Shown one piece after another: positions 4,057-58,217 of a stretch of 64,000 nucleotides of DNA. The stretch is taken from positions 3,224,001 to 3,288,000 of the forward strand of contig JASTWF010000031.1 in the NCBI GenBank assembly GCA_030390025.1. Direction: 5' to 3'. Positions within the stretch are counted from its first letter, which is position 1. Every line of letters begins with the position of its first letter. A program made the position numbers and the translations under genes. The stretch is from Squalus acanthias. Lineage: Eukaryota. Under the pieces are notes generated by a model. It did not search any database. It worked only from the letters and a program-made list of their open reading frames with translations, and had not been told where the DNA came from.

Positions 4057-7000
4057 GTGAGTGAGAATTAATTATTAAATTTTTTGTACAGATTTGTCAA
4101 AGTAAGATTATTTTGAGTTTTGCATTGAGTTTAGTATATTTTAAAATGAGGAGAGGCATTATCGTGCAGAATATAATATAAACAAGAGTAGTCAAGGTAA
4201 ATATTATTGTTGATGAACTCAAAACTGTTGCATCTTTTTATTATTTTCTGGCCACTTTTGATGAAAAATAAACTGATCCCAGGATCTTAAAAGCAAAAGA
4301 TGAATAAGGTGTTGACAGTACTATTTCTGTGGATGTGGAATTTGCTTTTCAAGTAAATTGTTCTTGGACTGTGCCCCCCTTTTATTTCAAGCATGCATTG
4401 AGAGGTTCTTTTTGAACTCCTGGTTCTTGGGTGCTTGTTATACCTCTACTTTATCAAGAAGGTCAAAGGGTAGAGGCCAGATTGGTAGAAGTCATGGTTT
4501 CTGCCCAATCACAGTCTGACCGTCCCACATAGAGGGCTTTAATTTAGAGATGCAGGGATAATAAACCAGTGGACCCTAGCTGGGACAAGAGGGTGAAAAC
4601 ACTCCATGCAAACCACATTCACTTAAATCCATTCCCATGCAGGTTTTTACCACCTTAATGGAGGAGACTTGCATGTGGAGAGTGATTGCTTTCACTGAAT
4701 ACCACGAGTCTTGTCCATGTATACTTCACATACAGGCTGAGCTCTGCCCACTGGCATCCATATGCCAGTTAAATTAATATTGGCAGAGACACAAATCCAT
4801 CCTCATTGCTATATGCTCCTTGAGTCAAAATATTTTCCTTATATAGCAAATTGTTATCGGGAGAAAAAAAATATTTAAAACTGTCTCTCTGCATTCAAAA
4901 GCCTCCTTTAAAAAAAAAAAAAAAAAAAAATCCCCCTGCCCTGAAATTTCTTTTTTTCCTGTTCAGTATTGTCTCTTCCCCTTGTGAAATGCTTTGAAAC
5001 AGAAGGAGCTCTATATAAGCGAATGCTGCTAATATATTTGTTGTTCTTCTGGAGTAAAACCTTCAGATATTTGGGAATGACCGCTCTGATCATTCACTAT
5101 CGTGTTACCTTTACATAATAGGTCACTGTAATAGCAATGTTCTGATAATGATGGTGACTCTTTGGTGAATATTCCTCCAGTGCCATCATTATGGCTTCAT
5201 TGCACTGTCCACTAATGTAAATGTGAAGCACAGCACTCGTTTGAAATGGAATTCATACTTGTTTTACTTGGTTCTTGCTCTATAGATTTTCTAGAGTCCG
5301 TTTGGTATATTGGTACTCCTCAGCACATTGCAGACATGCTCCAGGGAATTACAGACTGGGAGGAGGCACTGCCTGTTTTAATGCAACAGATGATATTGCA
5401 TGCCTAATGATTTGCTATTTAGCAACTGCCTATTTTAATTCCAATTGCCACCTAAAGATTCATGAATATATTGGATAGAAGTATTGTAGGTATACTAAGG
5501 CTAGGATAGCAGATGTCTAATTCGGTGAATGCTGTTATACTAGTATGCAATATGGAACAGTACCAGACCTTTACCGGTCATGGAATTATCCCAGCTATGA
5601 AGCTGGTGTCAGGCTCCTCTACATTTTTTTTTTACAGTAGCCTTTAACGGGGCCAGTATTTGACTTGTACCAGGTTCTTTCTTAAAAAGAAAATCAGAAT
5701 GGACTGGATTGATACATTTTGTTACTAGTCTAACTTTCTTTTTAAAAGATTTCACAAACCTGCATGCACATTATCTCTAATGGTGGTATGGTGGCTATAG
5801 CCAATAACTTTTACAGATGCTTGATGGTATGGCTTTAGCATGTATACAGTATTGTGCTTGCGTTGCAAATGAATAGAGCAGAATGTATTTTATAATCCAT
5901 ATATTTGCTCTGCTAGTTATCGAAAAGAAAAACGGGCTTGACCGGTCTAGCCTTGTCATGACCGAAGAGTGTTTGCTATTTTTTTTTTTAAGTTGGGCAA
6001 GCCAATCCTGTTCAAAGCCAACCAGAAAGAATCCTGATTTTTCCTTTTATTTAAAAAAAAACTGCTCAAATTTAAATACTTTCAAAAATTAAAACCATTC
6101 AATCGACTTCCATTAAAGTTTGTGAAAGAATCCTGCCTTTCAATAAGATTCTGTGCTTTGAACAATTCAAGCATTAATTTTTCAGGTCAGGTTATTCTAG
6201 ATGTCCACATCTACTGATCACGTTAACAGTGATGCTGTCGCATATTTCTTATCCTCACAGCTCATATCGTTTAGTTCTTGCAGAGAACTATTTCAGTCTA
6301 CAGTATATCAACATAAATTGTGTCAAAACAATAAAAAATATCTGGTAGCATTTAAAGACTGTACAAAATATCTTTGAGAAGACTGGAGTATTTTTTAAAA
6401 CTTTCCTTGAACTTGTTGTAGGTGGAAGTTGTTTGCTGTCCATTATGGCCACCATACTGCTTTTCCCAGCTTGGTGTGAGAATGAGAATTCATTAGCTCT
6501 TCTCAGTAAGTCACGAAGAGTTGCCTTTTATGGGGCAGAACCTGATTCTCCCTTTTTTCTTCCTCATATAAAATTCTTTGCTGCCATGCATCGATTCACC
6601 TATTAATTTGACTATTTCTTATTCCTCTTGTCAGAATGCTGTGTGCTCTGCCGTCATCTGTTTGCTGCTAAGAATTACAGGTGAATGTGAATCTAGGAAC
6701 TCGTACTCACTTGCATAATTCTCACTTAAGTATTGAACTGAATTACATAGGAACTACCAATCCTCAGTGAAATTATTTTTTTTTTATCAAGAAAAAGGTG
6801 TTATGGTAGCACAAGTAGCTTAACGAAGTGAGCACAGGGTCCTGTGGCCTGAGGGATAAGAAACCATCAAGAAACATTAACAGGAATTCACATGCTTACA
6901 GAAGAAAAACATTTTATAGGTTCTCTGATATTTGTTTGCAACTGGGAAAAAAAATAACTCGCTAGGCATTAGAGTTTAAAAGCATGTTTTTACAGCTAAC

Positions 7001-7181: not shown

Positions 7182-8190
7182 GTAAGTTGGAGAAAAACAT
7201 TCATTAAACAGGATCGAATTGCCAGTTTGAACTAAATCTGAACAGAACAAAATATGTATAGTTGTTTATTGGGGATGGGGCACATATCAAAAGACTGTGT
7301 ACAGAAGAATTTGTGTACTTTATGTACATGTGTATAAGCCGACCCATGTAGAAGATGATTTCTCTGCTTTGTAGCCAAAAAAACTTTGAAAAATATCTAT
7401 AACCTAAAGTATAAATATGTGATGGCTCAACAATCACTACAGTAATAAATAGTTAAATAGATTTTAAAAATATTTGGGATAGTAGCAGACATGCTTAAGC
7501 ATAAAATCAGCCAGTCAGCAATCACTGCCTTTTCAAACTTTATTAATTAAATGCATAGAATTGTACTCTTGTGAAATAGTTTTTTTAATTTTATAAGCAC
7601 ATTCGCTTTCTATCATTGGTATAAATGTATTCAGTCTGTTTGCAGCCTAATTGCAAGCAGTCGTTTTGTGGCCCTTCTGTTTCCACTGAGATTTTGTTGT
7701 TTTTATATATAGCGCAACTACCTCCAATATTTTGCCAAAGGGTTAAGGGATTTAGATCAATCTGACTAGGTACTGTACAAATTGACACCAGTGATATAAA
7801 GCACATACAATTCATTGGCTGACGTCATTGGAACTGATTTACTTCACTATTTTACTGAACAATTAAGTACCCCGAGAGTTAACTTGGCTTCAAAAATACT
7901 CCAATATAGTGACTTGCCTTGTAAATTATGTATACCGTCTTGGATTATTAATATCTCCTTGTTAAATTATTAGTTTTGATAAATAGAACTCAAACATATA
8001 ATAACAAGCTTTTAGAAAAACAAAACAATATTTTTCAGTTGACGTCTACTTTCTAGTCACCACAGTGGGGTTAGTCAACTGGTGTTCATGGATCATATCA
8101 TGTGGTATACATAGCGCTAACTGAACCAAATTCTTTTCCATGTGTAAAGCTACTAAGAATTTGCCTTCCTGGCTCTTTTTTTGCCTCTAG

Positions 8191-23710: not shown

Positions 23711-24109
23711 CTATCAACAATTCAATAAACCATTTACATCCTATACAGCTAAAACTTTAGATAAGCTTGTCACCAAAAGATTGGTTTATTTGGTCAAAAA
23801 AATATTCAACATTACTACCAGATAGCAAATAAAGATCATTAATAATGTTGAAGGCCTTTGTGAATGAGATGAAGCACTAAATGGCTATAGTTTTATGTAT
23901 TCGGGTACATCTGGAAGCCAGTTAGGACAATTATTGCACTTTTAAGATTTTTGCTACCAAAAGAAACTTGCAACTTTGTAGGCCTTTGCTTTGGTTTCTC
24001 AGCTAACAGACCTCACTTCTTATAATGTTATACTATTTTGGGAAAACTACCCATCATGTACAGTTAAAGGCAGAATCAGGTAGATTACTTGACATATTCG
24101 TAGGAGGCA

Positions 24110-24507
24110 GTTTTCTCCACCACCTGCACCCCCACCCCCGACTTCCTGACAGCACAGAGCTGCTGAATCTTACGGGGGTACTGTTCTGTGGGCACCTGCA
24201 GGTCTCCACTACATCATCCAAGTTGTCAATCTTCAAGCGTGAGCCAAAGCAATGAGTGTGAATGGGTGATTTGACTATAGAGAGCGTCAAAGCTGAAACT
24301 AACCCTGTGCTCACCAGGCTTCTGCAAAAGTACATTTTCCAGCAAGGCTCACCGGTGCTAATCAGGATTGGGGACCCTATATTTTTTTTCTTCTCCCTAA
24401 TCCATGGGTACTGAGGCCAATTATAGCACCCTAACTGCTGCCCTGGCTGAGATCAGGAACTGGGACTTTTCTGGTGTGTATGGCCTACACACTAAGCCTT
24501 CAGGGGA
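24110..24507 (-). mobile_element. LF-SINE-like element
   Basis: 'actgaggccaattatagcaccctaactgctgccctggctgagatcag' and 'ctgggacttttctggtgtgtatggc' are the reverse complement of the LF-SINE core and head. Confidence 0.78.
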
Positions 24508-26665
24508 GAAATTCTTCTTGTAACTAAATAAAGATACTTCCCACCTACAAAATTCCTAATCCCATTCCACTCTGGATTTTGGTCCTGAGTTATCTGCATT
24601 CCTTAGTTTGGGCTTTACGTTAAACTAACCTTGTTTTTTATACCAAACAAAATGTTTACATCTGTCCTTGGAAGTAATTGCAAAAGAGCAAAAAAAAACT
24701 AATTTTAATTGTTACTTCATCATTGAAAGAGAGAACTGTTACTGTTTTGTGGAGGGTGGAAAAAGTACAATCATTATATCAGTTGCAATTATGTTTTATT
24801 GATGCAATTTATATTGTGTTATGCTTACATAAAAAAGAAGCGTTTGCCATGTAAACTTTGGAACAGCAATGCCTCCCTAATGATTTGTTTATAAAATTGC
24901 TATTTATTCCCTCCCTGTAGTTCCCTCCTCAAAGAAGGGGCAATCTATGGTTGAGTCACTTTCTTGCATACCTCCAAGTAGGTAAAACCAGGCTATTTCT
25001 GCATCCTTTTAGATCTGGGCTGTGGTGCAGCGGATGGAGAGATGGGGAAACCCAAAAGCTGATGTATTCTGCTCCTGATAATTCGAAGTTGATTTTTGCA
25101 TTAAAAATTTGAATTCAGCAATGTAAACAACACAGCAAAGTGGGAATTAAGTTTTATTAAAAAAAATGGAGTTATCAAATAATTTGAATTAAGAGAAGTC
25201 AACTGTTTCATAAAATCCTTACTCTTAATAGTTACAATACCTGTGCCATTTTTCTTCAGGACATGATTAACTTGTTTTCATGGTCAGTTACTGAACTAGT
25301 CAGATAACGAGTAATCGCATTTGTGTGATTTATACTCCTGAATGATATCTCAGTGAAGGAGTGGTCCCTGGACTTTGTGTCTGTTATCAGAAAAGGACCT
25401 TAAACAGCATTTTCCAAACTCAGGCCAGAATTGCGCAGTTCCAACGCAGATCGATCGTTTGAGCTCGAAGCTCACCGAAATATTGCAATCAGAGTAATTC
25501 AGTTGGAAGTTGTACAGATGCAGCAGATATTCAGCCAATCAAAGACCGTGTGATCAGAATTAAGGATCTCGATGCCCAGTTGCTGTAATTTCATGAACAC
25601 AGCCCAGGGCCATTGGCCATGGATTTTTTTTTAAATAGATGTGAAGATAGCATCTGTGCGCAGGTTAAGAAAAGGTTACTTTGTTGTAAGTCAGTGAGAT
25701 GGCTTCTGTGTATATAGAAAAGTAAATGTTACTAATTGTCCAGCATGTTTTTGTTGTCAATGCAGCTGCACTAAATTTTGCTTAAATGGGGTGGGCAATC
25801 TATTGGGATGTGAACTGCACCTTTAAAGAGATTAACTATCAGTAATTAAAAGAATTTTGATTGATTTTAATAATCTTTTCATCTGTCTTTTAGATTTTTT
25901 TCAGTGTCATATATTTTTACTTAAGCAATATGTGCATATACCATCCGGGACACTTGCCTGGAACGGTTACCAAGGGAGTTGCATTACTATTCTCGAAATA
26001 TTAATGAGACTTACTGAAATCCCTTTATAGATACTCTATTGACTTTAATTAATTTTCTTGGTAATAAAGGGCTCAGTAACTCTTCCATGTCAGTTCCCTG
26101 ATGATGCCATCACCACTCCTCATTTACAGAAATGTATTTTAAAAATCAACAAAAATTGAAAAATCATTTTGAAATTCATAATTTTTTTTAACATGGTTTT
26201 TTTAAAAGGGGTTTAAAAAAACAGAAATCGCACTATCAATAGCAGCAAAAATTCTTTTTCAAGATTTAAAATAAATAAATTCCACTAAAGATATATAATC
26301 CTTCAAAGGCACAGCTCAGATATGAACTGCTGCTATTGAACTCATGTGAAAGACAATGAACAATTAAAATGTGCCAGATACGAGCAAATGTACAGCCAGT
26401 GTAGGTTGTGTACAGGTGTGAAGTACATGCAAATGTACTGTGTAGTCACAAGTTCTGCTTACCAGACATAAATAGATAGTGAGGTGTGGATTATATTGCT
26501 GATGAATATTTTCCAGTGCTTGCCACCCAGTTATCAGATTTGGCACAGTTAAAGGTAAAAAGAAAACAAATGTTACCAGTAAATTACTGGGGAAAAAATT
26601 ACCTGTACTCGAGACAATTATGGAAATTTAGTAAGCACATATATATGAGACATAATCTTCCTTAC

Positions 26666-26798
26666 AAAAGCAAAATACTGCGGAAGCTGGAAATCTGAAA
26701 TAAAAACAGAAAATGCTGGAAATACTCTGCTGGTCAGGCAGCATCTGTAGAGAGAGAAACAGAGTTAACATTTCAAGTCGATGACCCTTCGTCAGAAC
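26666..26798 (-). mobile_element. Solo Penelope-like pseudo-LTR fragment with 9-bp TSD and hammerhead-like motif
   Basis: Homologous to 28338-28435, 28981-29095 and 31634-31739. CTTCCTTAC is directly repeated at 26657-26665 and 26799-26807. Confidence 0.85.
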
Positions 26799-26799
26799 C
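26763..26799 (-). ncRNA. Minimal type I hammerhead ribozyme-like motif (probably decayed)
   Basis: Minus strand reads GGTT-CTGACGA-AGGGTC ATC GACTT-GAAA-T-GTT-AACT: CUGANGA core, stem II, GAAA, NUH and stem I arms. Confidence 0.65.
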
Positions 26800-28337
26800 T
26801 TCCTTACCCTTCAGTATCCTAATTATTTGCAGGAAGCTGTTGCTGTAAGTGGGGGCTGCACAATTACTAGGGGCCATTAAGCTGAGAGAAGACATAAATG
26901 ATGAATGTATCTGACATCGCTGCTGCTGGTGACTGCCCTGACTTCACTGGTAGCATCACAAGGTAAGTGAGGTGGTTTCAATATACACATTACTATCGGG
27001 GACAGAGACCGCCATCCTATTTGATGCAAGAAGGCTGAGCAGCACAGCCCGTCTGTACAAGCCAACAATGTGGTTTTGCACCTCCATGTACCTGCACCAG
27101 TCTTTGAATAAGGTGGGGAAGCCAGAAAGTAAATCATGAACTATAACTGAAATTACCACACATCCTCAAACCTTGTGCACATTGTGGTGTTTCTCTCTTG
27201 GGCCAGGGTTGTGGAATCTGCCCTGCAATTTGAATGAGGTGGATTCCACAGCCCCCAAACTGTTTCACACTATTGCCAAACTGATTCTCGAAGCAACATA
27301 AATATGTCACGAAAGAAAGTCTGAGGTGCCCAGCAGTGCAGAATCATTCCAAATCACAGTGGCATACTGGCTTAAACAAAATGCACAGTTGCAATTACCG
27401 TATGGAAATTCATTTTTAGGAACAATCACAAGACGGTAAAATAAGTAGATGATGCATGGAAACAACGTTTTAAATTAATCCTGGCAAAGGTTTATGGTTA
27501 CCACGCTCTGCTTTTGAAGTCTTACTTACAGCAACAGTGTATGTGCTTACTAAAGTTTCATATTTGTCTCCAATATAGATAACATTTTCCAATGATTTAA
27601 TGATGACATTCATTTTCGTTTTGCCTTTTTATTGGCTGTGCCAAATCTGATATATGGGTGGGAAGCACTGGAAAATACTCTTCCGAATATAATCCACAGC
27701 TCACCATCTATTTATGTATAGTAATCTGTGCAGCTCTACTGCAGGGGGAGTACTTTTGTTGAAAATGACTTGCCACCTCCTGTCTCCAAGCTATTATTGT
27801 CCTGACTGCTGACTGCAAAAATAAGGCTTGCCACCTAACAAAACTTTTAAATACCAAAAAGAAAACATTTTCGCATACGGTAGCATCTTCTTTCAGTGCT
27901 AAAGACCCATTTTAGGACCATTTTCACTGCAGTTCCTGCCCAAGTAGATTATAGATAATGCCAATACTGCAGCTGTGCAGAGTGCTTGTGGTCTCACAAT
28001 AGCAGCAGTGTTTAGTTTACAATACAGGACCTATATCAAAATGATACAAGGAAAATGAAGGTGTCACTAATATCTAATTTCTTGAGGGTATCGGGTTGAA
28101 GGCACAGCCTATTTACTAAATTTGCATTTTAGTTACACTACTTGATGCTATTAGCTGCACAGTTCCTGCAATAATTTAACCTCTTACAGAACTCGCCATT
28201 GAAAAAGAGAAATTAATGATAGGAACAGCCCGGTCTGGAAGCGCAAGATTGCGAAGTCGCCCCTATATAATATTGGACTTCTATACATGCACTGGGTTCC
28301 CCACTATTAATTTAAAAATGTTATGTCCTTGGACATA

Positions 28338-29095
28338 AAAACAGAAAATGCTGGAAGTACTCAGCAGGTCAGGCAGCATCTGTGGAGAGAGAAACCGAGT
28401 TAATGTTTCAGGTCGATGACTTTTTGTCAGAACTGGAAAAAGTTAGAGATGTAACAGGTTTTAAACAAGTGCAGGGGAAGGGGAGGAAAGAACAAAAGAT
28501 TTGTGATAGAAACATAGAATCTAGGAGCAGGAGTAGGCCATTCGGCCCGTCGAGCCTGCTCCGCCATTCAATACGATCATGGCTGATCATCCAAATCCAG
28601 TACCCTGTCCCTGCTTTAATCCCCACAGTACACATATCTCACCCTACCCCCGTAACCCCACGTATTTAATTCCCCCTAACATATCCCATCCTATCCCCAT
28701 AACCCCACATATTTAATCCCCCCTAACACTAAGGGTCAATTTATCATAGCCAAATCAACCTAACCCACACATTTTTGGACTGTGGGAGGAAACCGGAGCA
28801 CCCGGAGGAAACCCACGCAGACACGGGGAGAATGTGCAAACTCCACACAGACAGTCACCCGAGGTCAGATTCGAACCCGGGTCTCTGGCGCTGTGAGGCA
28901 CCAGTGCTAACCACTATGCCACCGTGTTGCCCTTAGGGTGGAAGGCAGGAGATTAAAAGACAAAAGGGATGATGGTGCGAGACCTGAAACGTGAACTCTG
29001 TTTCTCTCTCCACAGATGCTGCCTGACCTGCTGAGTATTTCCAGCATTTTCTGTTTTTATTTCAGATTTCCAGCATCTGCAGTATTTTGCTTTTG
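28338..29095. mobile_element. Penelope-like element with inverted pseudo-LTRs, interrupted by an HE1 SINE
   Basis: 28338-28414 is the reverse complement of 28981-29058. A degenerate direct repeat flanks it: tgttatgtccttggacata (28319-28337) and tgttaatgtccttaaacata (29096-29115). Confidence 0.8.
28508..28932 (-). mobile_element. HE1-like V-SINE with CR1-derived tail
   Basis: V-domain 'gggaggaaaccggagcacccggaggaaacccacgcagacacggggagaatgtgcaaactccacacag', tRNA-like head with B-box 'ttcgaacccggg', CR1-type tail at 28508-28620 and an internal ~48-bp tandem duplication at about 28631-28727. Confidence 0.9.
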
Positions 29096-29189
29096 TGTTA
29101 ATGTCCTTAAACATAATGGCCTTTGAAACATTAAATTCCTTTCAAAAATGATACTGTTCCTTTGCCTAATTTCTATTTTTCTATCTCTA

Positions 29190-30285
29190 TTGGCTTAGTG
29201 GCAGGAGGCAGAGGGTGATGGTTGAAGGTTGTTTTTGTAACTGGAAGCCTGTGTCCAGTGGTATATCGCAGGGATCGGTGCTGGGTCCCTTGCTGTTTGT
29301 AGTGTACATTAATGATTTAGATATGAATGTAGGAGGTATGATCAGTTAGTTCGCAGATGACACGAAAATTGGTGGAGTGGTAAATAGCGAGGAAGGAAGC
29401 CTCCGTCTACAGGACGATATAGACGGGTTGGTCAGATGGGCAGAACAGTGGCAAATGGAATTGAACCCTGAAAAGTGTGAGGTGATGCATTTTGGGAAGA
29501 CTAACAAGGCAAGGGAATACACAATGAATGGTAGGACCCTAGGAAGGACAGAGGATCAGAGGGACCTTGGTGTGCATGTACATAGATCCCTGAAGGCAGC
29601 AGGACAGGTAGATAAGGTGGTTAAAAAGGCATATGGGATACTTGCCTTCATTAGCCGAGGCATAGAATATAAGAGCAGCGAGGTTATGATGGAGCTGTAC
29701 AAAACGCTAGTTAGGCCACAGCTGGAATACTGTGTGCAGTTCTAGTCACCACACTATAGGAAGGATGTGATTGCATTAGAGAGGGTGCAGAGGAGATTCA
29801 CCAGGATGTTACCTGGGCTGGAGCGTTTCAGCTATGAAGAGAGACTGGACAGGCTGGGGTTGTTTTCCTTAGAGCAGAGAAGGCTGAGGGGGGTCCTGAT
29901 TGAGGTGTACAAAATTATGAGGGGCATAGATAGGGTAGATAGAAAGGAACTTTTCCCCTTAGTAGAGGGGTCAATAACCAGGGTGCATAGTTTCAAGGTA
30001 AGGGGCAGGAGGTTTAGAGGGGATTTGAGGAAAAACGTTTTCACCCAGAGGGTGGTTGGAATCTGGAACTCACTGCCTGAAAGGGTGGTAGAGGCAGGAA
30101 CCCTCACAACATTCAAGAAGCATTTAGATGAGCACTTGAAACGCCATAGCATACAAGGCTACGGACCAAGTGCTGGAAAATGGGATTAGAATAGATAGGG
30201 CTTGATGGCCGGCACAGACACGATGGGCCGAAGGGCCTCTTTCTGTGCTGTATAACTCTGACTATCTATGACTATGACTATCTCC
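29190..30285 (+). mobile_element. CR1 LINE, 5'-truncated, RT domain to 3' tail
   Basis: QGSVLGP and FADD motifs (about 29268-29361). ORFs 29377-29745 and 29767-30189 are one frame broken by a TAG. (ctatga)n tail. Confidence 0.95.
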
Positions 30286-30329
30286 TATCTATCACTAAGA
30301 CCTCCTGTGTAATATTGCCTGTCACTGTC

Positions 30330-30775
30330 CCTACCTCTGATCAAACTGTCATCCACAACTTCTTCAGGCTCAGCTTTTCCTACTTTCTGTTCGCCCACTT
30401 CCTGAGCTCCACCCCACACAAACTTCAAATCAACCGGAGCGCTGCTCCCACATTCTATTTCATACTAAATCCTACTTAGCTACTACCCCTGTCTTTGCTG
30501 ACCCCCACTGGCTACCAAACACAGTGGTGTCAAGATGTCTGTCCTCAATAATGAACCCAATAATGGCCTTGACCCAACCTACCTCTGCAATTGATCCAGC
30601 CCTACCTTTCGGCTTGCACTGTGTACTCTTCCAACTCTGATCTACTCTAAGTCACTCCCTTCTCCCTCCAGTCCATTCTTGCTGGTAGAGCCTTTAGTTG
30701 TTACAGAATTCTCAGCCCAAACCATTCTATTTTGCTTAAACTCTCCCCACCTTCACAAGCCTTCTCAAAAACTAT
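30330..30775 (+). mobile_element. Degenerate L2 fragment (left half of an L2 split by MITE insertion and inversion)
   Basis: 'cactggctacc', 'acctacctctgcaat', 'gtagagcctttag', 'ccttctcaaaaac' resemble the L2 3' ORF2/UTR. The continuation is found inverted at about 35205-35459. Confidence 0.7.
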
Positions 30776-31633
30776 GGGGTAAAAATTATTTGCCGGGGCA
30801 CTAATTTTACGCCCCGAAAAAGTTAGCGCCCCCACGGCCGATTTTCCCAGGTAGCGCCCCAAGAGGGAGGAGGGGCGCTACTGGAAGTGCCCCGCGTCCC
30901 TTTTGGGGCGCTGCGAGCCAATATCGTGGCACGTCGCGCAGCGGTACTGCAGGCCATCCTCCCCTTATTAAAGGGAAGGGGCCTGGCGCAGCGCGACCCT
31001 GGGCCCAGCTGGGCCACCAGGGATCGGGAGTGCCGGCAAACGAGCCCGGCACTCACAGAGAGCAGCCGGCACCCCACGGGGGGGGCTTCACGGGGGCCGG
31101 GGACAGCAACGGGGACAGGTGCTGGCAGGCGGCCAGCAACAAAAATGGCCACCGACCACCTCCCCTTTAACTAGCGCCGCCCCGGCTGCAGGTAGGCCCC
31201 CCTGACCCCGGCAGACATAGCGTCCAGCGGTAAGTCGGGGGGCACCACCCAATATTACAGCCAGGGCGCTGTGCACGGCGATGATGTCATCGCCGGCGGC
31301 GCAGCACCATGCGGGACATCTCGGCCCCTTCGACCCCCGCTGACTCACGGTTCGCCTCGTTGACCCTGGCGAGGTTCGGAGCCGTCGGGAAGCCCACACT
31401 TTAGGTGGCAAAATAGGGATTATCCAAAAAAACTGCCTGTTAACTGCCCGTTAACAGGCAGTTAATTGGCACTGATCTCTTTCCTGCCTCAAGGAGGCGG
31501 CTCTCAGCGTGGGTTGGGTACCCACCTCCTGGGAAGATGGCACGGAGGCGGGTTGGGGGCGGGATGGGTACCCGCCCCCAGATTCTGCCATTTTCCCAGC
31601 AGTCCCGTCCCCAGGGCTGGCAAAATCACCCCC
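30776..31633. mobile_element. Chimeric MITE: family A right part (reversed, 30776-31318) fused to family B right part (31311-31633)
   Basis: 30776-31310 is the reverse complement of about 45145-45760 (both give spurious ORFs starting MPGSFAGTPDPW). 31315-31600 aligns directly with 32500-32790. Confidence 0.88.
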
Positions 31634-31739
31634 ATTAACTCTGTTTCTCTCTTCACAGATGCTGCCTGACCTGCTGAGTATTTCCAGCATTTTCTATTTT
31701 TATTTCAGATTTCCAGCATCCACAGTATTTTGTTTTTGT
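31634..31739 (+). mobile_element. Penelope pseudo-LTR half, displaced by inversion from the element at 35660
   Basis: 'attaactctgtttctctcttcacagatgctgcctgacctgctgagtatttccagc...'. Its reverse complement joins 35660 through the TSD AAT. Confidence 0.88.
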
Positions 31740-31986
31740 AATAGAATAAACATGGACTCCAAATGGAGCAGACTTGGTGGGCCAAATGGTCTTTTGAAGC
31801 TCCAAACTTTATGTTCTTATAAAACTTCAAGCAACAGCTAAAAAAGTGGAAAGCGAATAAAATGACAGAAGATAGGTCAGAGCAGCATATATACTGATGT
31901 GGCTCAGGCAATGGTACTCACTGCTCTGGACATCCTGAATATGAAGCTGATGGATGTTAACACAGAACTTGGTGTAGAAATACTCA

Positions 31987-32831
31987 GGGCTGGATTTTGA
32001 TACTGGGGGCGGGTTGGGGTCGTGAATCCCACTTTTTTGGGTTGTAGACCCGCCTCCATCGACTTGTGGCCAACCCACTGTATTTTCCCTTGATTGACCT
32101 TGTTGAGCCCGCCCAGTGAGCTCAGCAGGCCAATTAAGGGCCACCCGGCAACAGGTGACGTCACAGATTGACATTTCATCTGTCAAGAGCTTTTGACAGA
32201 TGAAATATCAGCGTTTGACAGCTCTGTGAAGCTGTCAAACACTGACAATCTGTCTTCTAACTTGAGTCCTTCCTCTCAGGCTGAGTTAGAAATCATTCCA
32301 GCACAGAATACAGAGGCTGAAACTTTTGACAGGACCACGGCTTTTCTGCTTTCTGTGCCGGTGAGATTTCTGACTCCCGAGAACCGAAGGGCTGACACCT
32401 GCAGGAGGAAGTTAAGGTAAGTAAAACTTTTTTCCACACTTTACACTTACCTTACACACTTACCTCTGCACACATGCACTCATCACTCACCTGCCCACCG
32501 GACATATCGACCCCTCCAACCCCTGCAGACCCACGGTCCGCCTCGCTGAAATGGCGTGGTTGGGACCTGTCGGGAAGCCCACATTTCAGCCATTAAAATA
32601 GGGATTAGGCAAAAAACTGCCTGTTAACTACCTGTTAACAGGCTGCTAATTGTCACTAATCCCCTTCCCGCCTCGGGGAGGCGGGTCCCAGCACAGGTCG
32701 GGTACCCGCTGCTAGCGAAACTGGCATGGAGGCGGGTTGGGGGCGGGATGGGGTCGGGACCCCCGAATCTGCAACTTTAACCCTCCACACGCCTCCAAAC
32801 CCGACTCCACGGGTCAATGAAAATCCAGCCC
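31987..32831. mobile_element. Family B MITE (PIF/Harbinger-like non-autonomous DNA transposon)
   Basis: Perfect 12-bp TIR GGGCTGGATTTT...AAAATCCAGCCC with flanks TCA/TAA and no transposase. An inverted copy lies at 61629-62364. Confidence 0.85.
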
Positions 32832-33869
32832 TAAGGCTCAAGATGGACTCTCAGACCTTGGAGCCATCAATCGGTAAACATTCTCTTATAGTGGTGGGGA
32901 GGGGAAGCTTGCCCAGCTCCTGTTAGTTTGGAGAAAAAAAACATTTGTTTACACTCGGTAGGATTGGAGTTGATTCTGCGGAGATTAATCACTACATTTT
33001 TTAGTTTATTTTTTACTAATGAATCTAACATTTAATTGTTGGACAACATTGCTTGAGTTTTATCATTAATTGCAACATTTAAATGACTATTTCCCTGAAC
33101 ATTTGTTATCATTACAAAATCCCCTTGTTTTAAATGGATTTGTTTGCCTCAAGGTAACGTTAAGAAGGTCAAAAGGTGACTGCACACCTCAGGTCAACAC
33201 ACGAAGTCACTGGGACCAAAGTGTTGAGAGGTTAATAAACTCCTGATTTTGATAGCTGAAACTCTGTGGGACTGCTTGCAAGACTCTATACAGGAGATTT
33301 GTGGGTGAGGTGGTGGGCTCTGTTTGTTATTTGAGTTTGGTTTCGTTACTTTCAGACATGCTTGGACAGATAAGTCAATCCTTGACGCTCTCAGTGAATT
33401 TTGTTGCCTAGCTGCGTTGGCCTTCTACCCTAATAAACCATAGGCTGAACGATATTTTATTCCATTTGCTAATTTTTGCAACAAAGTAGGTGCGAGGAGA
33501 AAGTGGGGAGCATTACTTTTCAATAAAAGGAAAGTGTACCCAACTGTGATTTCACTGGTCATCCATCATGAAAGGAGTTAATTTGGAACAGGAGCAACTT
33601 GTATTTAAATAGTGCATTATCATATCCTCAAGATGTCCCAAAATGCTTCACATGCAGTGAATAATGCCAAGCATTAGTTAAAACTGTTTATGTGTTCGAT
33701 GAATAAACTACTGCAGACACTCTTGCTTCCTCTGTCGTGTGCACAGGATCTGAAAGTCAAGGGTAGGTGTTTGTTTTTATTACGTTTACAGTAGAGAGTT
33801 GAAGTAATGAAACAAGGTAAAATACAAGAACAGGAAGGTAATAAATTATGGTTTAAAATAGGAATTAAA

Positions 33870-34350
33870 AGAACACAGAATTTATAGCACAGAAAGAGGC
33901 CATTCAGCCCATCAAATTGTGCTGATGCTGGCTTTACAGCTGGAGCTGTCTAATCCTATTTCACTGCCCTTCCACATAACCTCTTATATTCTAATTTTCA
34001 AAGACTTATCCAATTGTCTTTTAGATTATGTTATTCCTTTTCCACAATAGCCACTTGTGGTAAACCTGAAAAATTTGCGAAAAAAATGTCCTCTAATTTA
34101 CACCTTTTGTTCTTCTAATATCCCACATTACAACAGTGACTACACTCCAAAAGCACTTCGTTGGCTGTAAAGCACTTTGAGACATCTGGTGGTTGTGAAA
34201 GGCGCTATATAAATGTAAATCTTTCTTTCTTAATGATAATTCTGAAACTATGGCCCCTTGTTACCAATTTATCAATCAGTGGAACAATCTCTTGACTATG
34301 TACTTTCTCAAAACCTTTCAGAATGTTAAAAACCTCAATTAAATCCTTCT
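33870..34350 (-). mobile_element. Degenerate CR1 3' end with a nested SINE tail (about 34120-34231, +)
   Basis: 'agaatttatagcacagaaagaggccattcagcccatc' is a CR1 tail. The nested part reads 'cattacaacagtgactacactccaaaagcacttc...ggcgctatataaatgtaaatctttct'. Confidence 0.7.
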
Positions 34351-35204
34351 CTGTTAATCAGGGCTGGATCCAGATTCTTAGAGTTGAGAGGAAAATACTG
34401 ATCTACAATATCACTCACTCCCCCAATCTTGAATTTTGGATTCATATTCTCCTGAGATTCTTAATCCAGAGAAATATCTTCTCAATCCTTTTCTCTGTAA
34501 CTCTGCCTCATTTTCTTGGAGTTCACCTAACCTGAAGAGACTGATACCAGGGTGACTACACATCCACCCTCTGCTCTTAAGTTCTCCTTCAACACTGGGC
34601 TTTTATTGAAATCTGCCTCTGAAGTAATTGATCAAACGATAGATAACTCCTTAAAAACTGCAGCTCCTGTCTCATGTAATTCTTCTCAATCTTCCACAAG
34701 CTGGTATCTTCTCTGCAGCCTGTCCCCACTGCTCCCGTCCATCACCATCTGTCCCTTCTATGCAATTTCTCTCTCGGTTTTCTTGCCTTGTACATGCTTG
34801 AAGAAAATAATTCCTGAGTGGGGGGGGAATAAAACTAACGATAAGGAAAAATTAAGATTTAATTAAAAAAAATCAAAGTAAACAGATATACAAAATATAA
34901 TTTAAAAAGGCTCAAAGGAATACAAAGAGAAAATGAGAAAAAAGTTACAGGGATAACAGAAAGAATTCAATGTGAAAAAGCAGGAAGAAAAGAACAAGAA
35001 AGGAATAGAAATATAAGGTGTAATTTTCTGACTTTGTACTGCTGGTGGTGAGCCCTACCTGAGCACACAATCCAGATTTGGGCCATGTGCTGCACAAGAT
35101 AATGTCAGAACATCATGGCATTGCCCGCTAGATTTGCAACATGCACTTCGAGCAGGCATGGTTCCTCGGTGGCAGTGCAAAGTCAGAAAATTACCCCTGT
35201 GGAC

Positions 35205-35459
35205 AGTAACAACTTGTATAGTACCTTTAATATATCTAAATAAGAACATAAGAAATAGGAGCAGGAGTAGGCCATGCGGCCCCTCGAGCCTGCTGCGTCA
35301 TTCAATAAGATCATGGCTAATCATCTCACTCAACTCCACTTTCCCGCCCTTACCCTTCTCCCTTGATTCCCCTAGTGTCCAAAAAAAAGTCACAAAGTAG
35401 GAGTCGAAAGAGACACTAAGCAGGAGTTAGAGATGATTGAAAGCATAGTCAAAGTCATA
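35205..35459 (-). mobile_element. L2 3' end (right half of the split L2) with a nested CR1-type tail (about 35243-35380)
   Basis: Reverse complement reads 'tatgactttgactatgctttcaatcatc', continuing the L2 at 30775. L2 tail 'aacaacttgtatagtacctttaat'. Confidence 0.68.
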
Positions 35460-35659
35460 GGGGGCTAAAGAGGGCGCTAACGGGGCGCAAATCAACTAGC
35501 GCCTGGGCGTAGCGCTGCTAACGTGTCCCGCTGGGCGGGCTTAACAAGGTCAATCAAGGGAAAATAGCGTGGGTTGGCCACAAGTCGATGAAGGTCGGAC
35601 TAAAACCCGACAAGTTGGAGTCTCGCCTCCAAAAGCTCCCCATTGAGAAAATCCAGCCC
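35460..35659. mobile_element. Chimeric MITE: family A left part (35460-35531) fused to family B left part (reversed, 35524-35659)
   Basis: 35465-35530 aligns with about 45036-45100. 35531-35600 aligns with about 62236-62300. Ends in the B TIR AAAATCCAGCCC. Confidence 0.88.
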
Positions 35660-36328
35660 AATGTTTCAAGTCAATGACCTTTCATCAGAACTGGAAAAAG
35701 TTAGAGATCTAACAGGTACAGAGGCAGGGAAAGGGGGGAGGGGAGGAAAGAACAAAAGGGAAAGTCTGTGATGGGCTGGAAGGCAGGAGAGATTAAATGG
35801 CAAAAGGGATGATGGTGCAAGGCAAAAGGAGATGGTAATGGGACAAGTAAAGAAACAAAAGATGGGTCTAGAGGAGCTGAAAATGACAAAAGCAGAATCA
35901 TTACCAGCAACTGCAGTATGAAAAAATGGGAGCAGAGGTTATGATCTGAAATTGATGAACTCAGTGTTGAGTCCGGAAGGCTGTAAACTGCTTAATTGAA
36001 AGATGAGGTGCTGTTCCTCGAGCTGCAGTTGAGCTTCATTAGAACAGTGTAGGAGACTGAGGACAGAGCGGTCAGAGTGGGATTGAGGCAGAGAATTAAA
36101 ATGACAGGCGACTGGAAGCTCAGGGGTACCCTTGCGGACTGAACGGAGGTGTTTCGCAAAGCAATCACCCAATCTGTGTTTGGTCTCCCCAATGTAGAGG
36201 CGACCGCATCGTGAGCAGCGAATACAGTATACTAAATTGCAAGAAGTAAATCGCTGTTTCACCTGGAAGGAGTGTTTGGGGGCCTGGACGGTGGGAAGGG
36301 AGGAGGTAAAAGGGCAGGTGTTGCATCA
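35660..36328 (-). mobile_element. Penelope-like retroelement 3' part: GIY-YIG endonuclease, 3'UTR and pseudo-LTR
   Basis: ORF 35939-36262(-) NLVYCIRCSRCGRLYIGETKHRL...H...PVACHFN...EQHLI...PSGLN is the Penelope GIY-YIG domain with its CxxC insert. Confidence 0.92.
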
Positions 36329-38269
36329 GAATTTCTCTTACAATGTCATACAAAAATAATGCTTTTTAAAGCAATTTGTGTCATTGTATAATGTGTAAAT
36401 AAATGTTAAATTGATTGCAAAATATTTTTTCATGAAGACGGTGCCCCTTTAAGTGAATGTGTTTGTTAACATGGTGACCATTAACTGACATGTATTATCA
36501 TTCACAGTTATATTAAATTTTATTTATAGCAACTTGAGAGATAACAAGTCCTTCATCATAGTAAGCTCACCACCAGAACAGAAGCTGCACTCTGTACCAA
36601 TTGCATCATTCTATAAATACACAGAGTCACACTGTATTACATCTCCAGTGAGTTCTCCACCAGTCTCCTTCGTTTACCTGCCAGTGCTGTATAAAATATG
36701 ACATTCCACTTTGAGGCACAGCCTCTAGTATCTGGTAAGTCACACCTAAACCGATCAGGCACCTCCTGTTAAGCCAGGGAAGAAAGGCTGGAGATGAGCT
36801 TCACTTTTCTGCAAACAAAACGTCTTCATTATAAATATCTGAGATTTGAGTATAACATTAGTTGACTAACAAATTGGCAGCCGTTTCAAAAATACATTTG
36901 TGCAGCCTTCAGTTTACCAGATTATTGGAAGTTATCTCGGTGACCTGCTGATAAGTGTTCGCTGTGGCACAAGCAATGCAGAAACGTTGTGTTTGTGCTG
37001 TAGATCCAAAGCTATTGTTTTCCCACTGGCGAGGGATGGGGGAAACTGAATGGGAGACTTGAAGGCTAGCCTCTCCTTCCTGCACAAACGTCCGGCCAGC
37101 TCCGCAGCACTGGCCGATATCTTGGCCACAATGATTGATAGAAAGCTTCTTGTGCCGGTGGAAGGGGACAGAAATATCATTGCCTTTTTGCATCACAGTC
37201 AAAATGTAATCCCTAGTGCCTCATGCTCCTGTTACCCATCTACTGTTTGGAAAAGAATACAATTTTTTGCAATGTCAGCCATTTTCAAATTGTATCGCAA
37301 TTTCAATTCAAAGGTTTCAGGCAATTTTTTATCCTTACTCTTATGTTTTGGGGTTTTTTACAACAGACATTTTCTTCAGGTTCAAGTAGGCCACTCCCAC
37401 AAGTGACTCTGTGCTCCCTACAATATCCAAGTAAATGTTCTGAGCCCAGGAGTTAAACAGATAATCCTTGTCGCTGTAGTCCAGCTTATTGGATATAATA
37501 CGTGATTTCCTTGACTTCAGTAGGGGAGGATATACACTATGTGGCTTAGAATATAAACTATTAGTCAGATTTATTAAATGGTAAACAGATAAATATAAAT
37601 ACTTACAGGATCATATGATCTAGAATTTCTTATATAATTTTAGAGTGCTCTGTGTTTTCATTCCTGAAGAAAATGGTGTAACAAATTGAAAAACAGTTGT
37701 CTTTTAGACCGTACTTCCTGCCTCCTTATAATTAATTCATACTTTATACCACACAGAAGCAGTGGTTTATTTCTAGTGGTTATTTTGCTCCGGGGCCAGT
37801 TCAGGAACTACTCCTGAATTCCATTAAACTGTGTATAACTAAACAGATAAATGAATGGTTTACTGACGAGTGAAGCATCTGAACGACATACTGATATCAC
37901 TTAGTGGCCTATTTTCCTGTAACCATTGATTGTCCCAAGATGCAACAATACAGAAGGTGAGGTTCAAATCAGACAGGTCACAGGCAGCAGGATCATTACA
38001 TTTAGTTGTTGTAGATGCGTGTCCTTCTTCAGCTGGAGCAAGGCAGGATAGTCTCAGCTTCAATCTTCTCCACTACTGCAGTGCTCCATACAGTGAACCA
38101 GCTCACCAATGCCAAAACTCAGCCAGTGAGGGCAAGTGCAAATGAGTATCTGTCAAAACTGTCAATTGAACTCCAGACTCTGTGATTAGCAGAATGGCTA
38201 GCAGACCGCCTCTTCAACATTTATTATCAAGAAATTGAATTATTTAAAAGGGTACAGCCTTCTTGAGAA

Positions 38270-38645
38270 AGGGTTTTCCAGACCTTATCTCATTTGTTGG
38301 CTGGCTTGTGCACTAACATGGGCACCAGGCATCCTCTACTACCTCATCTAAGTGGCCATTCTTCAAATGTGGCCCTAGACAATGTTGACAGGCCACCTGA
38401 CCATTGGAAGCACCACAGCGAACCCAGTTCTGCCCTCATTCATGCACATTCATAGCTGGATACCGGACAGTAAGAGCCTCTGCTGACTTCCCACCTTAAC
38501 TTCCCACAGGTCAATTGTAGCACCTCTACTGTTGCTCCTGCTGAGATCAATTAACTCGCCACATACTTTGACCTGAATGTAGAGCATCCCTGGTTTGGCT
38601 CAGTCGAATATTGGTCAGTGAATTTACTAACTGACCCATCAGGGA
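38270..38645 (-). mobile_element. LF-SINE-like element
   Basis: 'aagtggccattcttcaaatgtggccctagac' and 'tcaattgtagcacctctactgttgctcctgctgagatcaattaactc'. Confidence 0.75.
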
Positions 38646-40430
38646 AGCTACAGCACTTCCTTTAGTTGTCAAATTAATTTGGGTGTGAATGAAAGAAGGA
38701 AAAATGCTTAACACCCTCCACACACAACTATACTTGTTGCTCACTCTATCTATCCAGTTCACACTGCTTGGACTCACTGGGATGTTCAGTGAGCCATTGA
38801 GCTGGTAAACTCAATGCAAGTGAGTGAAGAAATACAATAACTGGAGAAGTTCTGATCACTGACTGAATCTAGATCTTGTCACTCATCGATACCAGCACAA
38901 GCAATGTATAATAGCTGAACCTCCTCCAGTAAATGGTCACTGTTACTCAGCACAATCAGATCCACGGTGGTTAAACCTCTCACAGTCACATCATTTTGCC
39001 TATTACATAGCGCAATTAGCATTAATTGTTACATGTGGAATATCTATTGGAGGGTAATATTGCTGGACTTTCTGCAGTGACATCTGAGAGCCATCCTGCC
39101 CACCCACTGCTAATAGAGGAAGCCACCCATCATTTTACAAGATAGGAACACCTAATAAACTTGATTTTAATAAGGATATCACAATATGCACTTTTTTGAT
39201 TCAACCGCACTGTTTTCTAAAGTCATAATATTGAACATTTTGATTCCATTTCGTCAAACTAATATTTAGACAAATTCAGTACCCAATGTGTCTCTCTGGG
39301 ATTGATATTCTTGAGATAATGAAAATGAGGACATGAGCTGTCAGGAATATGGAACTACCATAGTGACCCTGCAGTACTCCAAAGATGGGTGGTCGTTTTG
39401 GTGATAAATGGCACCGTGACTGCAGTCTTCTGACGATGGCTTTTGATAGTTGTCACTACCACCATTCACCAACTGCTGACCAGTGAATGTAGCTGGGCAG
39501 ATACAAGCGGGTGTTAAAAGAAATGTGCTGCGTTAAACAACTTCATGATTTGGTGGTGGGCACTACAATGCAAGTTTTCCATGGACAAAAAGTTTGAATC
39601 AAGGAGAAAGCAAGTGGAAAATTTCGATATAATATAGGTAGAGTGGGAAACACACCTGAAAGCAGAACATTCCACGATAACAAGCAAGCCCTCTCATTAT
39701 TTTAGCATTTACAGTTGCTGCATGAAGCCGTCCTTTGTTTCTTATTCGACAAGTAATTGCATTTTTCTACATTGTTTTCCTCCCAACTCATTCTGATTGT
39801 GATTTGTTAATATACGCATGCCATACACATTTCACCTGTGCTGGTAAATGGCTTTGAATCCTGCCAACAAAAATAAAAAATCCACCTGTTACTATGTCAA
39901 CAAAACAAATGAGTTATTTTAAGAGATGATTCTAGTTATTCAGAAGAACTTTTTTTTTTAACTTTATTATGTTGACGGGCTCATTAAATCTCAGCTTAAT
40001 GCAGTAAAACAGATCTTTCTGTTTCTGACATTAACTAAAGATGGTTGTTGGAGCTGAATATTTGTTTAAAGAGCTGCTATAACAGATTCTGGTGCACAGT
40101 ACTGATGAATTGCTGTGATCTGCTGTAGATGGAGCGTGTCCTGGTTTACATGACCATACTCCCAATGCTTTGGGTTTGATTACCTTAGCCTGGTTTCACG
40201 AGTATATAAACATGTTATCCTGATGATCACAGGAGTCATGGCTAATAAACGTTAGCTTTAAAACTATTCTTATTATTTGCTTGAAAATATTAACTTAAAT
40301 GTATATTCCTACTGTAATCTTGACTGTTAGTAAATTACCTTAATTTAAGACTTCCAGTGGCATTATTGCAATAAATGGATTAGTCCACCCAGTGCCTACA
40401 GGCGCGTAACCTCTCCATCTCAGGCCCGAC

Positions 40431-44996: not shown

Positions 44997-45760
44997 GGGG
45001 GAAAAATTCAGCTGCTTGCGCCTCCCGTTAGCGCCTTAAGAGGGCGCTAATGGGGCGTAAAGCAGCTAACGCCCGGGCGCAGCGCCGCCCACGCCTCCCG
45101 AAAAATTTAGTGGGAGGTTAGCGGCGGCGGCAGCCGGTAGCGCCCTGTGGCGCTGCGCCGCCGGCGATGACGTCATCGCCGTGCGCAGCACCCCGCTCGC
45201 GCCCCGGCCATGATCTTCAGTCGCGCCCCCTGATTTACCGCCAGACGCTATGTCCGACGGGTTCAGGGAGGCGTACGTGCGGCGATATTTAAAGGGGAGG
45301 TGGCAGGCGGCCATTTTTGTTGCTGGCCGCCTGCCAGCACCTGCCCCCGTTGCTGTCCCCGGCCCCCGTGAAGCCCCCCCACCGTGAAGTGCCGGCTGCG
45401 CTCCAAGAGCCCGGCACTTCTCTTGAGTGCCGGGCTCTTTTGCCGGCACTCCCGATCCCTGGGGGCCCAGCTGGGCCCCGGTTCGCGCTGCGCAGGGTCC
45501 CTCCCCTTTAAGAAGGGGAGGAAGGCCTGCAATACCGCGGTGCGACGTGCCGCAGCGCATGGCGCTGCGGCACGTAGCGCCAGGATATTCCCTCGCAGCG
45601 CCCCAAGAGGGATGCGGGGTGCTTCCAGTGGCGCCCCGCTTCCCTCTTGGGGCGCAACCACTGAAGTTCCGGCGCGGGGCCGCTAATTTTTTCGGGGCGC
45701 TAAAAGTCGCGCCCCGGCGAGGTTAGCGCCCCAAATGGGGCGCGACTCAACTTTTACCCC
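44997..45760. mobile_element. Family A GC/CpG-rich MITE (PIF/Harbinger-like)
   Basis: Imperfect TIR GGGGGAAAAATT...AACTTTTACCCC, flanks TAA/TAG, repeated subterminal TAGCGCC/GGCGCTA motifs. Confidence 0.82.
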
Positions 45761-53438: not shown

Positions 53439-54208
53439 GAGGGAAAAATTCGGTTGGTTAGCGCCTCCAGGGGGCGCTAACGGGGCGCTAGGAACTTCGC
53501 GCCCGAGCGCAGCCATTTTAGCACCGCTCGCGAAATTGACCAGTCGTTTTGCGACGGCGCTAAACACTACCGCCACGATCTCCTGCGCCCGTAGATCGTG
53601 ACATCAGTCAAGTGTGCAACGCCCCAGTAGTGCCCCGGACCGGATATTGAGTTGCGCCCCCTGCCTTAGCGCCTGCCGCTAGGAACGACAGGTAGAGGGG
53701 AACGTTTTCAAGTTGGGAAGGGGCTGGGGAGCGCTATTTAAAGGCAGGCGCTTTCTGCCTTTTCTTGTCGGCAAAATTTTTGGTTTTAACGCTGTGCTAA
53801 GGAGTTTTGGCCCTCAGTACCTCTTTTGAGGTTCTTAAGCGCTGAGCTCTTTCCATGGGCCTATCCATTAGTGCTTCCAACACAATTGCTTTTGAGGTCT
53901 CTCCAGGCCGAGATTCAAGGCTGCAATGAGCAGGGTGTGGCTGGCCAGCAAGATGGCCCCTCCCCTTTAAGAACTGGACAGAACCAGTGTGTCTGGCTTC
54001 CATGGTAATTGGCGTCGCCTGAGCTTTGGTAGCGTTCTGAGGTTTGTGCCTTAAGAGAGGTGTGTAGCGCCTGATTTAGCGCTCAAATCACCTCCGGGGG
54101 CGATAGAGGCGAATTTTGCAGTCGGAGATGATAATTAGCGCCGGGCGCTAAACTTTGCGCCCAGCCGATATTAGCGCCCCAAAATGGGTGATACCGAATT
54201 TTTCCCCC
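53439..54208. mobile_element. Family A-related MITE with TTA target-site duplication
   Basis: TIR GAGGGAAAAATTCGG...CCGAATTTTTCCCCC (14/15 match), TTA on both sides, many TAGCGC(C) subterminal motifs. Confidence 0.85.
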
Positions 54209-57442: not shown

Positions 57443-58217
57443 GGCCCGGATTTTGTGGTCAGCGGCGAACGAACGGCGCCAGCTGTTCATTACACTTACA
57501 CTTGTCCACAGACTTTCTGTGGGCTTTTGCACTGCAACTTGCAGTTATTAGAGAGTCAAAACAGTGCGGCGCCCTCTCCAGGGGATCTGAGACCTGTGTG
57601 AACAGCATGTCTCTTTAACCAATCAGATTGAAGAATCCTTACGCAGAGTCTAAATCAGGAAGTGTAAGTTAGAAAATTTAATTCGATGCCAAATCATATG
57701 CAGAAAGCAAAATAAAGAGAGGGAAAGAAAGATGGGACTAAGAGAGAGAGAGAGATAAAAGAGATAGAAAGAAAAAGTTAAAAAAAAATTATTTTAATTT
57801 TTAATTTTTTTTAAAATCTCCAATTATAATTAAAATCTGAAGGAATGAGACTCCACACTTGTAAAAGTACATTTTCAGTGCCAGAGAGGTTGTTTGGAAG
57901 TAATTAAGACTTACCGCACCAGTAAAAATTCACTTACACTTGAATGGACAAGCCCTAACTTTTTCTGGCATGCTTAGTGGGCATCTATTGGATAAGTTCT
58001 GCAAATTCACGCCCTGCCATGTATGTGAATGCTAAGTCTCTCAGTGAGATACTGTTTGAGTGAAGCTTCTGGAGGAGCAGGGCAACTCGGACAGCAACCT
58101 CATGATTTCTGCTTTTAACTGCGCATGTGCGGACACCAGAAATTGCTGTTCGATTTCCTCCTTAATAAGAGTGAGTGCTGAGAGCCTCACCGTTATTCTT
58201 ACTGCAAAATCCAGGCC
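57443..58217. mobile_element. Third MITE family (family C) with TIRs resembling family B
   Basis: GGCCCGGATTTTG...CAAAATCCAGGCC (12/13 match), flanks ATT/ATG, central GA- and AT-rich region. Confidence 0.72.

Follow-up and report, generated by a model that had tools for sequence, protein, structure and literature searches.

A 4.2-kb inversion between two different MITE families in Squalus acanthias, reconstructed from a single sequence

Introduction

In a survey of 41 human genomes, flanking repeats were absent from 51 of the 183 balanced inversions that were resolved, and 23 of these 51 carried adjacent insertions or deletions (indels) of more than 50 bp or further complexity, which was ascribed to Alt-NHEJ (alternative non-homologous end joining), to MMEJ (end joining mediated by microhomology) or to MMBIR (break-induced replication mediated by microhomology) (10.1101/2021.12.20.472354). 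Among individual human cases, one inversion shows deletions of 527 and 10 bp, and a templated insertion of 8 bp accompanies a second (PMC7702065). This study concerns a locus of this kind in Squalus acanthias. In a window of 64,000 nt (assembly GCA_030390025.1, contig JASTWF010000031.1, positions 3,224,001-3,288,000, forward strand), to which all positions below refer, a segment of 4221 bp (31311-35531) is inverted between a pair of MITEs (miniature inverted-repeat transposable elements) of different families, here called A and B.

By the features that can be tested, the locus belongs to the class of repeat-free inversions with deletion that is attributed to Alt-NHEJ, MMEJ or MMBIR, and it adds a genuine, exceptionally well-recorded case to a kind of rearrangement that has been described before. 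The adjacent loss of ~381 bp from B, measured against paralogs and not against an ancestral allele, exceeds the 50-bp bound used for the human inversions, and the corresponding loss from A is 45 bp. As in the human cases, there is no long inverted repeat, tens to hundreds of bases are missing, there are what may be a few bases of microhomology or a short templated segment, and the breakpoints lie within unrelated repeats, as they often do in those genomes. Different from the human inversions, the present one is found in a non-mammalian vertebrate, is deduced from paralogs and has both breaks in hairpin-rich MITEs.

Other described systems show partial similarity. Theta-mediated end joining (TMEJ) uses templates that are typically shorter than 10 bp, lie near the break and are accompanied by a priming and a resolving microhomology (PMC11541566). 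A template of this size near a retained end, flanked by both types of microhomology, would also account for the 8-bp sequence that is repeated at the two breakpoints described here; the published insertions stem mostly from deletion junctions in cultured human cells, whereas here the template would be provided by a third end in a four-end inversion, seen from sequence alone. The inversions analysed by Ranz et al. 2007 (PMC1885836) likewise carry a short inverted sequence at both breakpoints, lack homology between transposable elements and sometimes derive this sequence from one breakpoint, but their duplications range from 46 bp to 1.9 kb, while the 8 bp observed here abut deletions on both sides. 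In Atlantic cod, inversions by ectopic recombination with breakpoints inside hAT MITEs produced two chimeric elements with swapped target duplications (PMC12368964). These involve similar copies of one family, in contrast to the unalignable A and B, and the joins in the present locus are not gapless.

The inversion was reconstructed from paralogs within one sequence, not from two alleles. The window itself provided the controls: the A copies at 44997-45760 and, more distantly related, at ~53440-54207, the B copies at 31987-32831 and 61629-62364, and further copies that span the relevant sites, two of L2 and three of the pseudo-long terminal repeat (pLTR) of a Penelope-like element. The assignment to L2, CR1, Penelope and Harbinger is in part our assumption, and Pfam support for the GIY-YIG and reverse transcriptase (RT) domains is weak.

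The segment is inverted relative to its ancestral state

Compared with its ancestral arrangement, the segment 31311-35531 has been flipped, and its re-inversion in silico restores five markers: an L2 element, the Penelope pLTR, the 3-bp target duplications of both MITEs and a probable 11-bp target duplication of the Penelope copy. The original prediction had proposed the inversion and its polarity from the first four of these; every coordinate that it gave is correct, and this part of its reconstruction stands.

The 5' part of an old L2-type long interspersed nuclear element fragment, containing the end of the RT frame, occupies 30278-30772 (plus strand) and shares 57-59% identity with two copies, one at 13.3-13.9 kb and one at 48.4-49.0 kb. 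Its 3' part and tail are found inside the inversion at 35198-35456 (minus strand), where another repeat interrupts them at ~35240-35380 and the tail match is weak. MITE A separates the two parts, and its target duplication appears as TAT at 30773-30775 (plus) and as ATA at 35457-35459 (minus). When the L2 halves are joined so that a single TAT remains, the alignment to each of the two L2 paralogs tested crosses the join without a gap, as predicted. In the 25 nt past the TAT, the re-inverted sequence agrees with these paralogs at 18/25 and 15/25 positions, compared with 5/25 and 7/25 for the present sequence; among 200000 random draws of window segments, the values after re-inversion were reached in 31 and 369 cases. 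The duplication of A can also be read as the 4-bp CTAT, which leaves the empty site unchanged.

The pLTR is restored in the same way. One half lies inside the inversion at 31637-31741 (plus, 93-95% identity to three paralogs), next to the ATT at 31634-31636 (plus; AAT before the inversion), and the remainder of the Penelope-like copy lies outside at 35663-36332 (minus), next to the AAT at 35660-35662 (plus). With one AAT kept, the halves align to all three paralogs without a gap at the join and with 87-93% identity (124/137, 146/167 with a 2-nt gap distant from the join, and 108/116). The 3-bp target duplications of A and B are thereby confirmed by paralogous empty sites in L2 and the pLTR. 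The remainder includes a C-terminal GIY-YIG frame (35942-36325), for which the Pfam match (E=0.0067, 17.1 bits) is below the curated cutoff of 22.6, and the RT is absent from this truncated copy.

The fifth marker was missing from the earlier description. An 11-bp match (10/11; 48 of 3000 null trials) connects 31736-31746 (minus), the inner bases of which overlap the pLTR end, with 36333-36343 (plus). It is positioned relative to the pLTR end in the same way as the 9-bp duplication of the paralog at 26.66-26.80 kb and is probably the target duplication of the Penelope copy itself. One copy lies inside the inversion and one outside, and they become direct repeats only once the segment is re-inverted.

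That no inversion took place, and that the hybrid elements are stand-alone families or chance neighbours, is effectively refuted by this colinearity. The 3-bp A/T matches would indeed be weak alone (9-13% each among all-A/T triplets), but re-inversion brings the halves of L2 and of Penelope into gapless alignment with two and three paralogs, respectively, and the 11-bp Penelope duplication is split across the breakpoint. The nesting of A within L2 and of B within Penelope sets the order of events and places the inversion last. Both triplets and the 8-mer at the breakpoints are perfectly retained, which suggests that the inversion is not very old.

Both joins lack bases present in intact copies

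The left breakpoint joins the outer, non-inverted piece of A (30776-31310, plus; 87% identity to the intact A at 44997-45760) to a piece of B inside the inversion that ends in a degenerate terminus (31311-31633, plus; 78% identity to 32500-32778). At the right breakpoint, the piece of A inside the inversion (35460-35531, minus; 80% identity to 45035-45100), which lacks ~33 bp of the family terminus, meets the outer piece of B (35532-35659, minus; 81% identity to 31987-32115), in which the family terminus is intact. The predicted 8-bp inverted match between the breakpoints is exact: GCGGGACA at 31311-31318 (plus) and TGTCCCGC at 35524-35531 (minus) agree over 8 bases inward and 0 outward, and each 8-mer occurs once in the window. 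These 8 bp are the only inverted repeat at the breakpoints, where none of at least 50 bp is present.

A and B are non-homologous, as had been proposed. They share no alignable similarity, only chance matches of 9-12 nt (E 3.3), and the inversion is therefore not a product of homologous recombination. Non-allelic homologous recombination (NAHR) between transposable element copies was rejected on this ground and because of the gaps of 45 and 381 bp at the joins. The broader proposal of an origin by microhomology or staggered breaks is supported.

The re-inverted elements are each colinear and bounded by their target duplications, but they are not the continuous A and B that the original prediction described. 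Re-inverted A lacks 45 bp that both of its relatives (44997-45760 and 53440-54207) carry; in the intact A at 44997-45760 (minus), used as reference, these are positions 45102-45146. Re-inverted B lacks ~381 bp present in both of its relatives (31987-32831 and 61629-62364). Each gap lies exactly at the breakpoint, and both are located on the outer side of the 8-mer. In intact B, the missing segment is bounded by a direct repeat with 7/8 identity (32108-32115 and 32490-32497), a level of agreement that 1.3% of 20000 random deletions attained. For the A gap, the two ends agree at only 5/8 positions, as expected in 56% of the null cases, and an origin of this gap by slippage was rejected.

Compared in register, the 8-mer agrees with B at 6/8 positions (in its left copy, against both intact B copies) and with A at 5/8 (in its right copy), and the distant A relative has its first three bases. 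At the right junction, its place behind the outer B piece is the one expected if B had undergone an internal deletion. For randomly chosen right pieces of A and B, a common start of 8 nt was obtained in 0 of 30000 trials with fixed ends, in 14 of 30000 when a slide of ±3 nt was allowed, and in 19 and 48 of 8000 with slides of ±6 and ±10 nt. The match is thus beyond chance, at 0.05-0.6% depending on the permitted slide, and calls for an explanation.

The explanation given originally, in which recombination at the 8-bp match yielded reciprocal hybrids, amounts to a clean crossover at a microhomology common to ancestral A and B, both of which would have belonged to short subfamilies. The resemblance of the 8-mer to both families in register, including the first three bases in the distant A, would agree with such an event, as would the six exact 8-mers that A and B have in common in the required orientation and the richness of the broken A in indels. 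The breakpoint 8-mer is not among these six, however, and all four relatives keep the missing segments. Since A is short of ~45 bp and B of ~381 bp at the joins, a clean crossover does not apply unless two prior deletions ended at the same 8-mer, and this coincidence (~8% x 1.6%) makes the explanation quite improbable.

An unlikely two-step variant requires one prior deletion. B would first have lost its 381 bp, by slippage or MMEJ between the direct repeats or as a member of a short subfamily, and an 8-nt staggered break would then have occurred at this site; a resected break in A and the filled-in staggered break in B would have been end-joined, giving an inverted duplication of the 8-mer from one breakpoint, of the type described by Ranz et al. 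The final geometry would be identical, the B gap does resemble a self-contained microhomology deletion (7/8), and one-sided duplications linked to inversions have been described (PMC1885836). Those duplications measure 46 bp to 1.9 kb and not 8 bp, and neither B relative in the window is short. Moreover, the later break would have had to hit the old deletion junction: broken and intact B differ by no large indel other than the B gap, and by simple arithmetic a break falls within ±3 nt of it by chance in ~1.6% of cases.

A transposase could also be considered as the source of the 8 bp, which would then be the inverted target duplication of a hAT-like element that took part in alternative transposition and has since been lost. 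Rearrangements of the Ac/Ds type leave one duplicated target and one deleted interval, a geometry that is formally similar. Target duplications of 5-8 bp are typical of hAT elements (PMC4482050). Both joins are nevertheless internal to A and B, with no transposon terminus at either junction, and the intact 3-bp duplications imply that the ends of neither MITE have moved. Alternative transposition of the hAT or P type was rejected for the lack of termini at the joins, and we regard it as very improbable.

An artefact of the assembly or the library is very unlikely as well. False small inversions with microhomology are known from transposase-based libraries (PMC11541566). The present locus combines two reciprocal junctions with two deletions, and an inverted identity of 8 bp offers no repeat on which an assembler could flip the segment; a chimeric molecule would usually give a single junction, and the 64-kb window contains no N.

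A mis-repair of two breaks probably explains the joins

The most parsimonious and, in our view, probable reading is that the inversion arose in a single germline mis-repair event, in which two resected breaks were processed by theta-type end joining or by template switching. Before this event, as the nesting shows, an old L2 had received MITE A and a younger Penelope copy, ~4.5 kb away, MITE B. Two breaks, or a stalled fork that switched templates, would then have affected each MITE once, with the loss of 45-53 bp of A and ~381 bp of B. The outer end of B may have annealed in cis to the other piece of B via the 7/8 direct repeat, copied ~5-8 nt, dissociated and joined the inner piece of A via its new end (CGGGA, a 5-nt microhomology with the A register). 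The inner piece of B, still with its own copy of the 8-mer, would have been joined to the outer piece of A with little or no microhomology. [quoted passage not shown] The gaps, the repeat and the registers are directly visible in the window, and it is from them that we infer the order of priming and resolution.

In favour of this mechanism, the missing segments are kept in both A and both B relatives, and both gaps coincide with the breakpoints. Several points weigh against it. Identity between the reference copies and the broken ones is only 78-87% (13-22% divergence), and the references probably belong to other subfamilies, so that the ancestral bases at the joins are not fixed and the difference between 6/8 and 5/8 does not settle the matter. 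Relative to the 45-kb copy, six further indels of at least 9 bp are found in the broken A, and because it is so rich in indels, its 45-bp gap could predate the event (~8% coincidence). The microhomology test was devised once the data were known, and its register requires an additional base (382 instead of 381). Finally, the reconstruction is based on one assembled, inverted allele, and a single sequence does not separate end joining from template switching.

The hybrid elements are most likely dead scars

In the original prediction, the two A/B hybrids were bounded by termini starting with GGG and could offer a route to new chimeric MITE families. The termini do literally start in this way, but ~33 bp of the family terminus are missing from the right end of A and the right end of B has degenerated, leaving each hybrid with one damaged end. 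Over the terminal 12 nt, the left hybrid matches at 7 positions and the right hybrid at 4, while all five intact MITEs match at 10-12. The re-inverted parents themselves score low (A 7/12, B 9/12), because the inner end of A lacks the ~33-bp terminus and that of B is degenerate. The flanks of the hybrids are mismatched (TAT/ATT and ATA/AAT), so that neither has a target duplication of its own, and no second copy of either hybrid junction occurs in the 64-kb window. These observations do not support the proposed route, and the hybrids were rejected as mobile units; judged from these sequence features, they are most likely dead scars.

Searches around the hybrids were also negative. A 120-aa frame across the left junction yielded 74 candidates in a protein search, none with E<=0.01, and the longest frame of the A family (218 aa, across intact A) yielded 1606 candidates, none with E<=0.001; as both frames are probably not real genes, these negatives carry little weight. 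When conserved motifs of B and A were compared with bacterial and archaeal genome contigs as a check for contamination, each gave 0 matches.

Mobilisation of PIF/Harbinger elements needs a transposase together with a Myb-like protein that binds terminal or subterminal sequence (10.64898/2026.05.26.728016, PMC9179366), and A and B differ in this sequence. A hybrid between unrelated MITE families that founded a new family is not described in the literature covered, which excludes most subscription papers. A wider scenario, in which these GC-rich PHIS-like MITEs with their many hairpins act as intrinsic sites of breakage or fork stalling that seed small homology-free inversions throughout the genome, and in which some cross-family hybrids are cross-mobilised and amplified as chimeric families, is doubtful as a whole. 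Cross-mobilisation is conceivable because different families have GGG-type ends in common, and the fragile-site half of the scenario is plausible, since both breaks lie in MITEs, the A break is at the foot of a hairpin (~46 nt as folded) and the lost B segment contains the strongest hairpins of B. For the A break, the hairpin is no more than a hint, because hairpins abound throughout A and greater stability is found in six of its 60-nt windows. Nothing at this locus speaks for the amplification half. The scenario is built on one locus, and detection from a single sequence favours breaks inside repeats.

The inverted segment itself matters little: none of its 49 stop-free frames of at least 45 aa matched Pfam, and no coding sequence or protein family was recognised in it. 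The value of the locus is that of a worked example, in which nested transposons reveal the polarity of an inversion, the order of events and the lost bases from one assembly. Its junctions still carry a signature of the repair, and as a marker of lineages or populations the inversion would be clean. If MITEs of this kind were enriched at inversion breakpoints genome-wide, they would constitute a source of homology-free rearrangements in a slowly evolving group of vertebrates.

MITE families in the window

From their sequence features, A and B look like PHIS-type (PIF/Harbinger) MITEs. They have short terminal inverted repeats (TIRs), no Pfam match was found in frames over B, and the longest frame of A has no protein relative. 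Short TIRs, A/T-rich 3-bp duplications, the lack of coding capacity and palindromic subterminal motifs are shared with described PHIS elements (PMC4482050, PMC9179366, 10.64898/2026.05.26.728016). The duplications of the two broken copies (TAT and AAT) deviate from the TWA target consensus, AAT fitting the ANT of Pangu instead, and no autonomous partner was found in the window. The intact copies are flanked by TAA/TAG, TCA/TAA and TTA/TTA, and an element of a further family, C, by ATT/ATG; the A copy at 53 kb was left out of this comparison, as its ends are uncertain. Among the window frames scanned with Pfam, which comprised 201 of the 601 stop-free frames of at least 45 aa, so that short exons inside the inversion could escape, none matched a transposase.

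Harbinger elements are reported as undetected in the elephant shark, and the same source asks for a check of other cartilaginous fish (PMC9179366); the MITEs of the window may represent abundant PHIS elements in a shark. The window contains no fewer than three to four MITE families with GG(G) ends and A/T-rich flanks of 3 bp, and copies of A, B and C make up 7.7% of it. GG(G)-ended copies lie at 44997-45760, 53440-54207, 31987-32831, 57443-58217, 61629-62364 and 35017-35197. The B copy at 31987-32831 (plus) is carried intact within the inversion (12/12 terminal match), and the one at 61629-62364 lacks ~100 bp relative to it (at 61701) despite 95% identity. A copies differ from each other by many indels of 9-33 bp, and internal deletion is common among the MITEs of the window. 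The CpG content of the A family (44997-45760 and 30776-31310) is close to expectation, with observed/expected ratios of 0.77-0.98 compared with 0.36 for the window, and its copies form patches resembling CpG islands.

Neighbouring genes and repeats

The inverted segment lies ~27 kb beyond a C-terminal exon of the KIAA0319 family (Pfam PF23620, E 1.7e-13, 3843-4061, plus). A weak match to the PIK domain of PI4KB at 7207-7452 (minus; E 0.0024, below cutoff) is probably due to chance.

The pLTR stretch at 35660-35700 (minus), next to the B insertion, presumably resembles a minimal hammerhead ribozyme. An Rfam scan of 24000-40000 reported no hammerhead, only two chance matches (E 2-3) on a hairpin of A. 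Another Penelope-like copy, at 28332-29096, consists of tail-to-tail inverted pLTRs with other repeats inserted at ~28499-28935, and its inversion point is ~11 bp from the site that corresponds to the MITE B insertion in the broken copy. A solo pLTR fragment of 137 bp at 26654-26807 has a perfect 9-bp target duplication, and TTAC stands beside the pLTR end in both Penelope duplications, hinting at a target preference. Close to this fragment, an old inverted repeat of 188 bp (26459-26641 and 27540-27724; 80% identity, ~900 bp apart), with a short pLTR copy inside its left arm, may be a decayed element with long TIRs or the trace of an older inversion or duplication.

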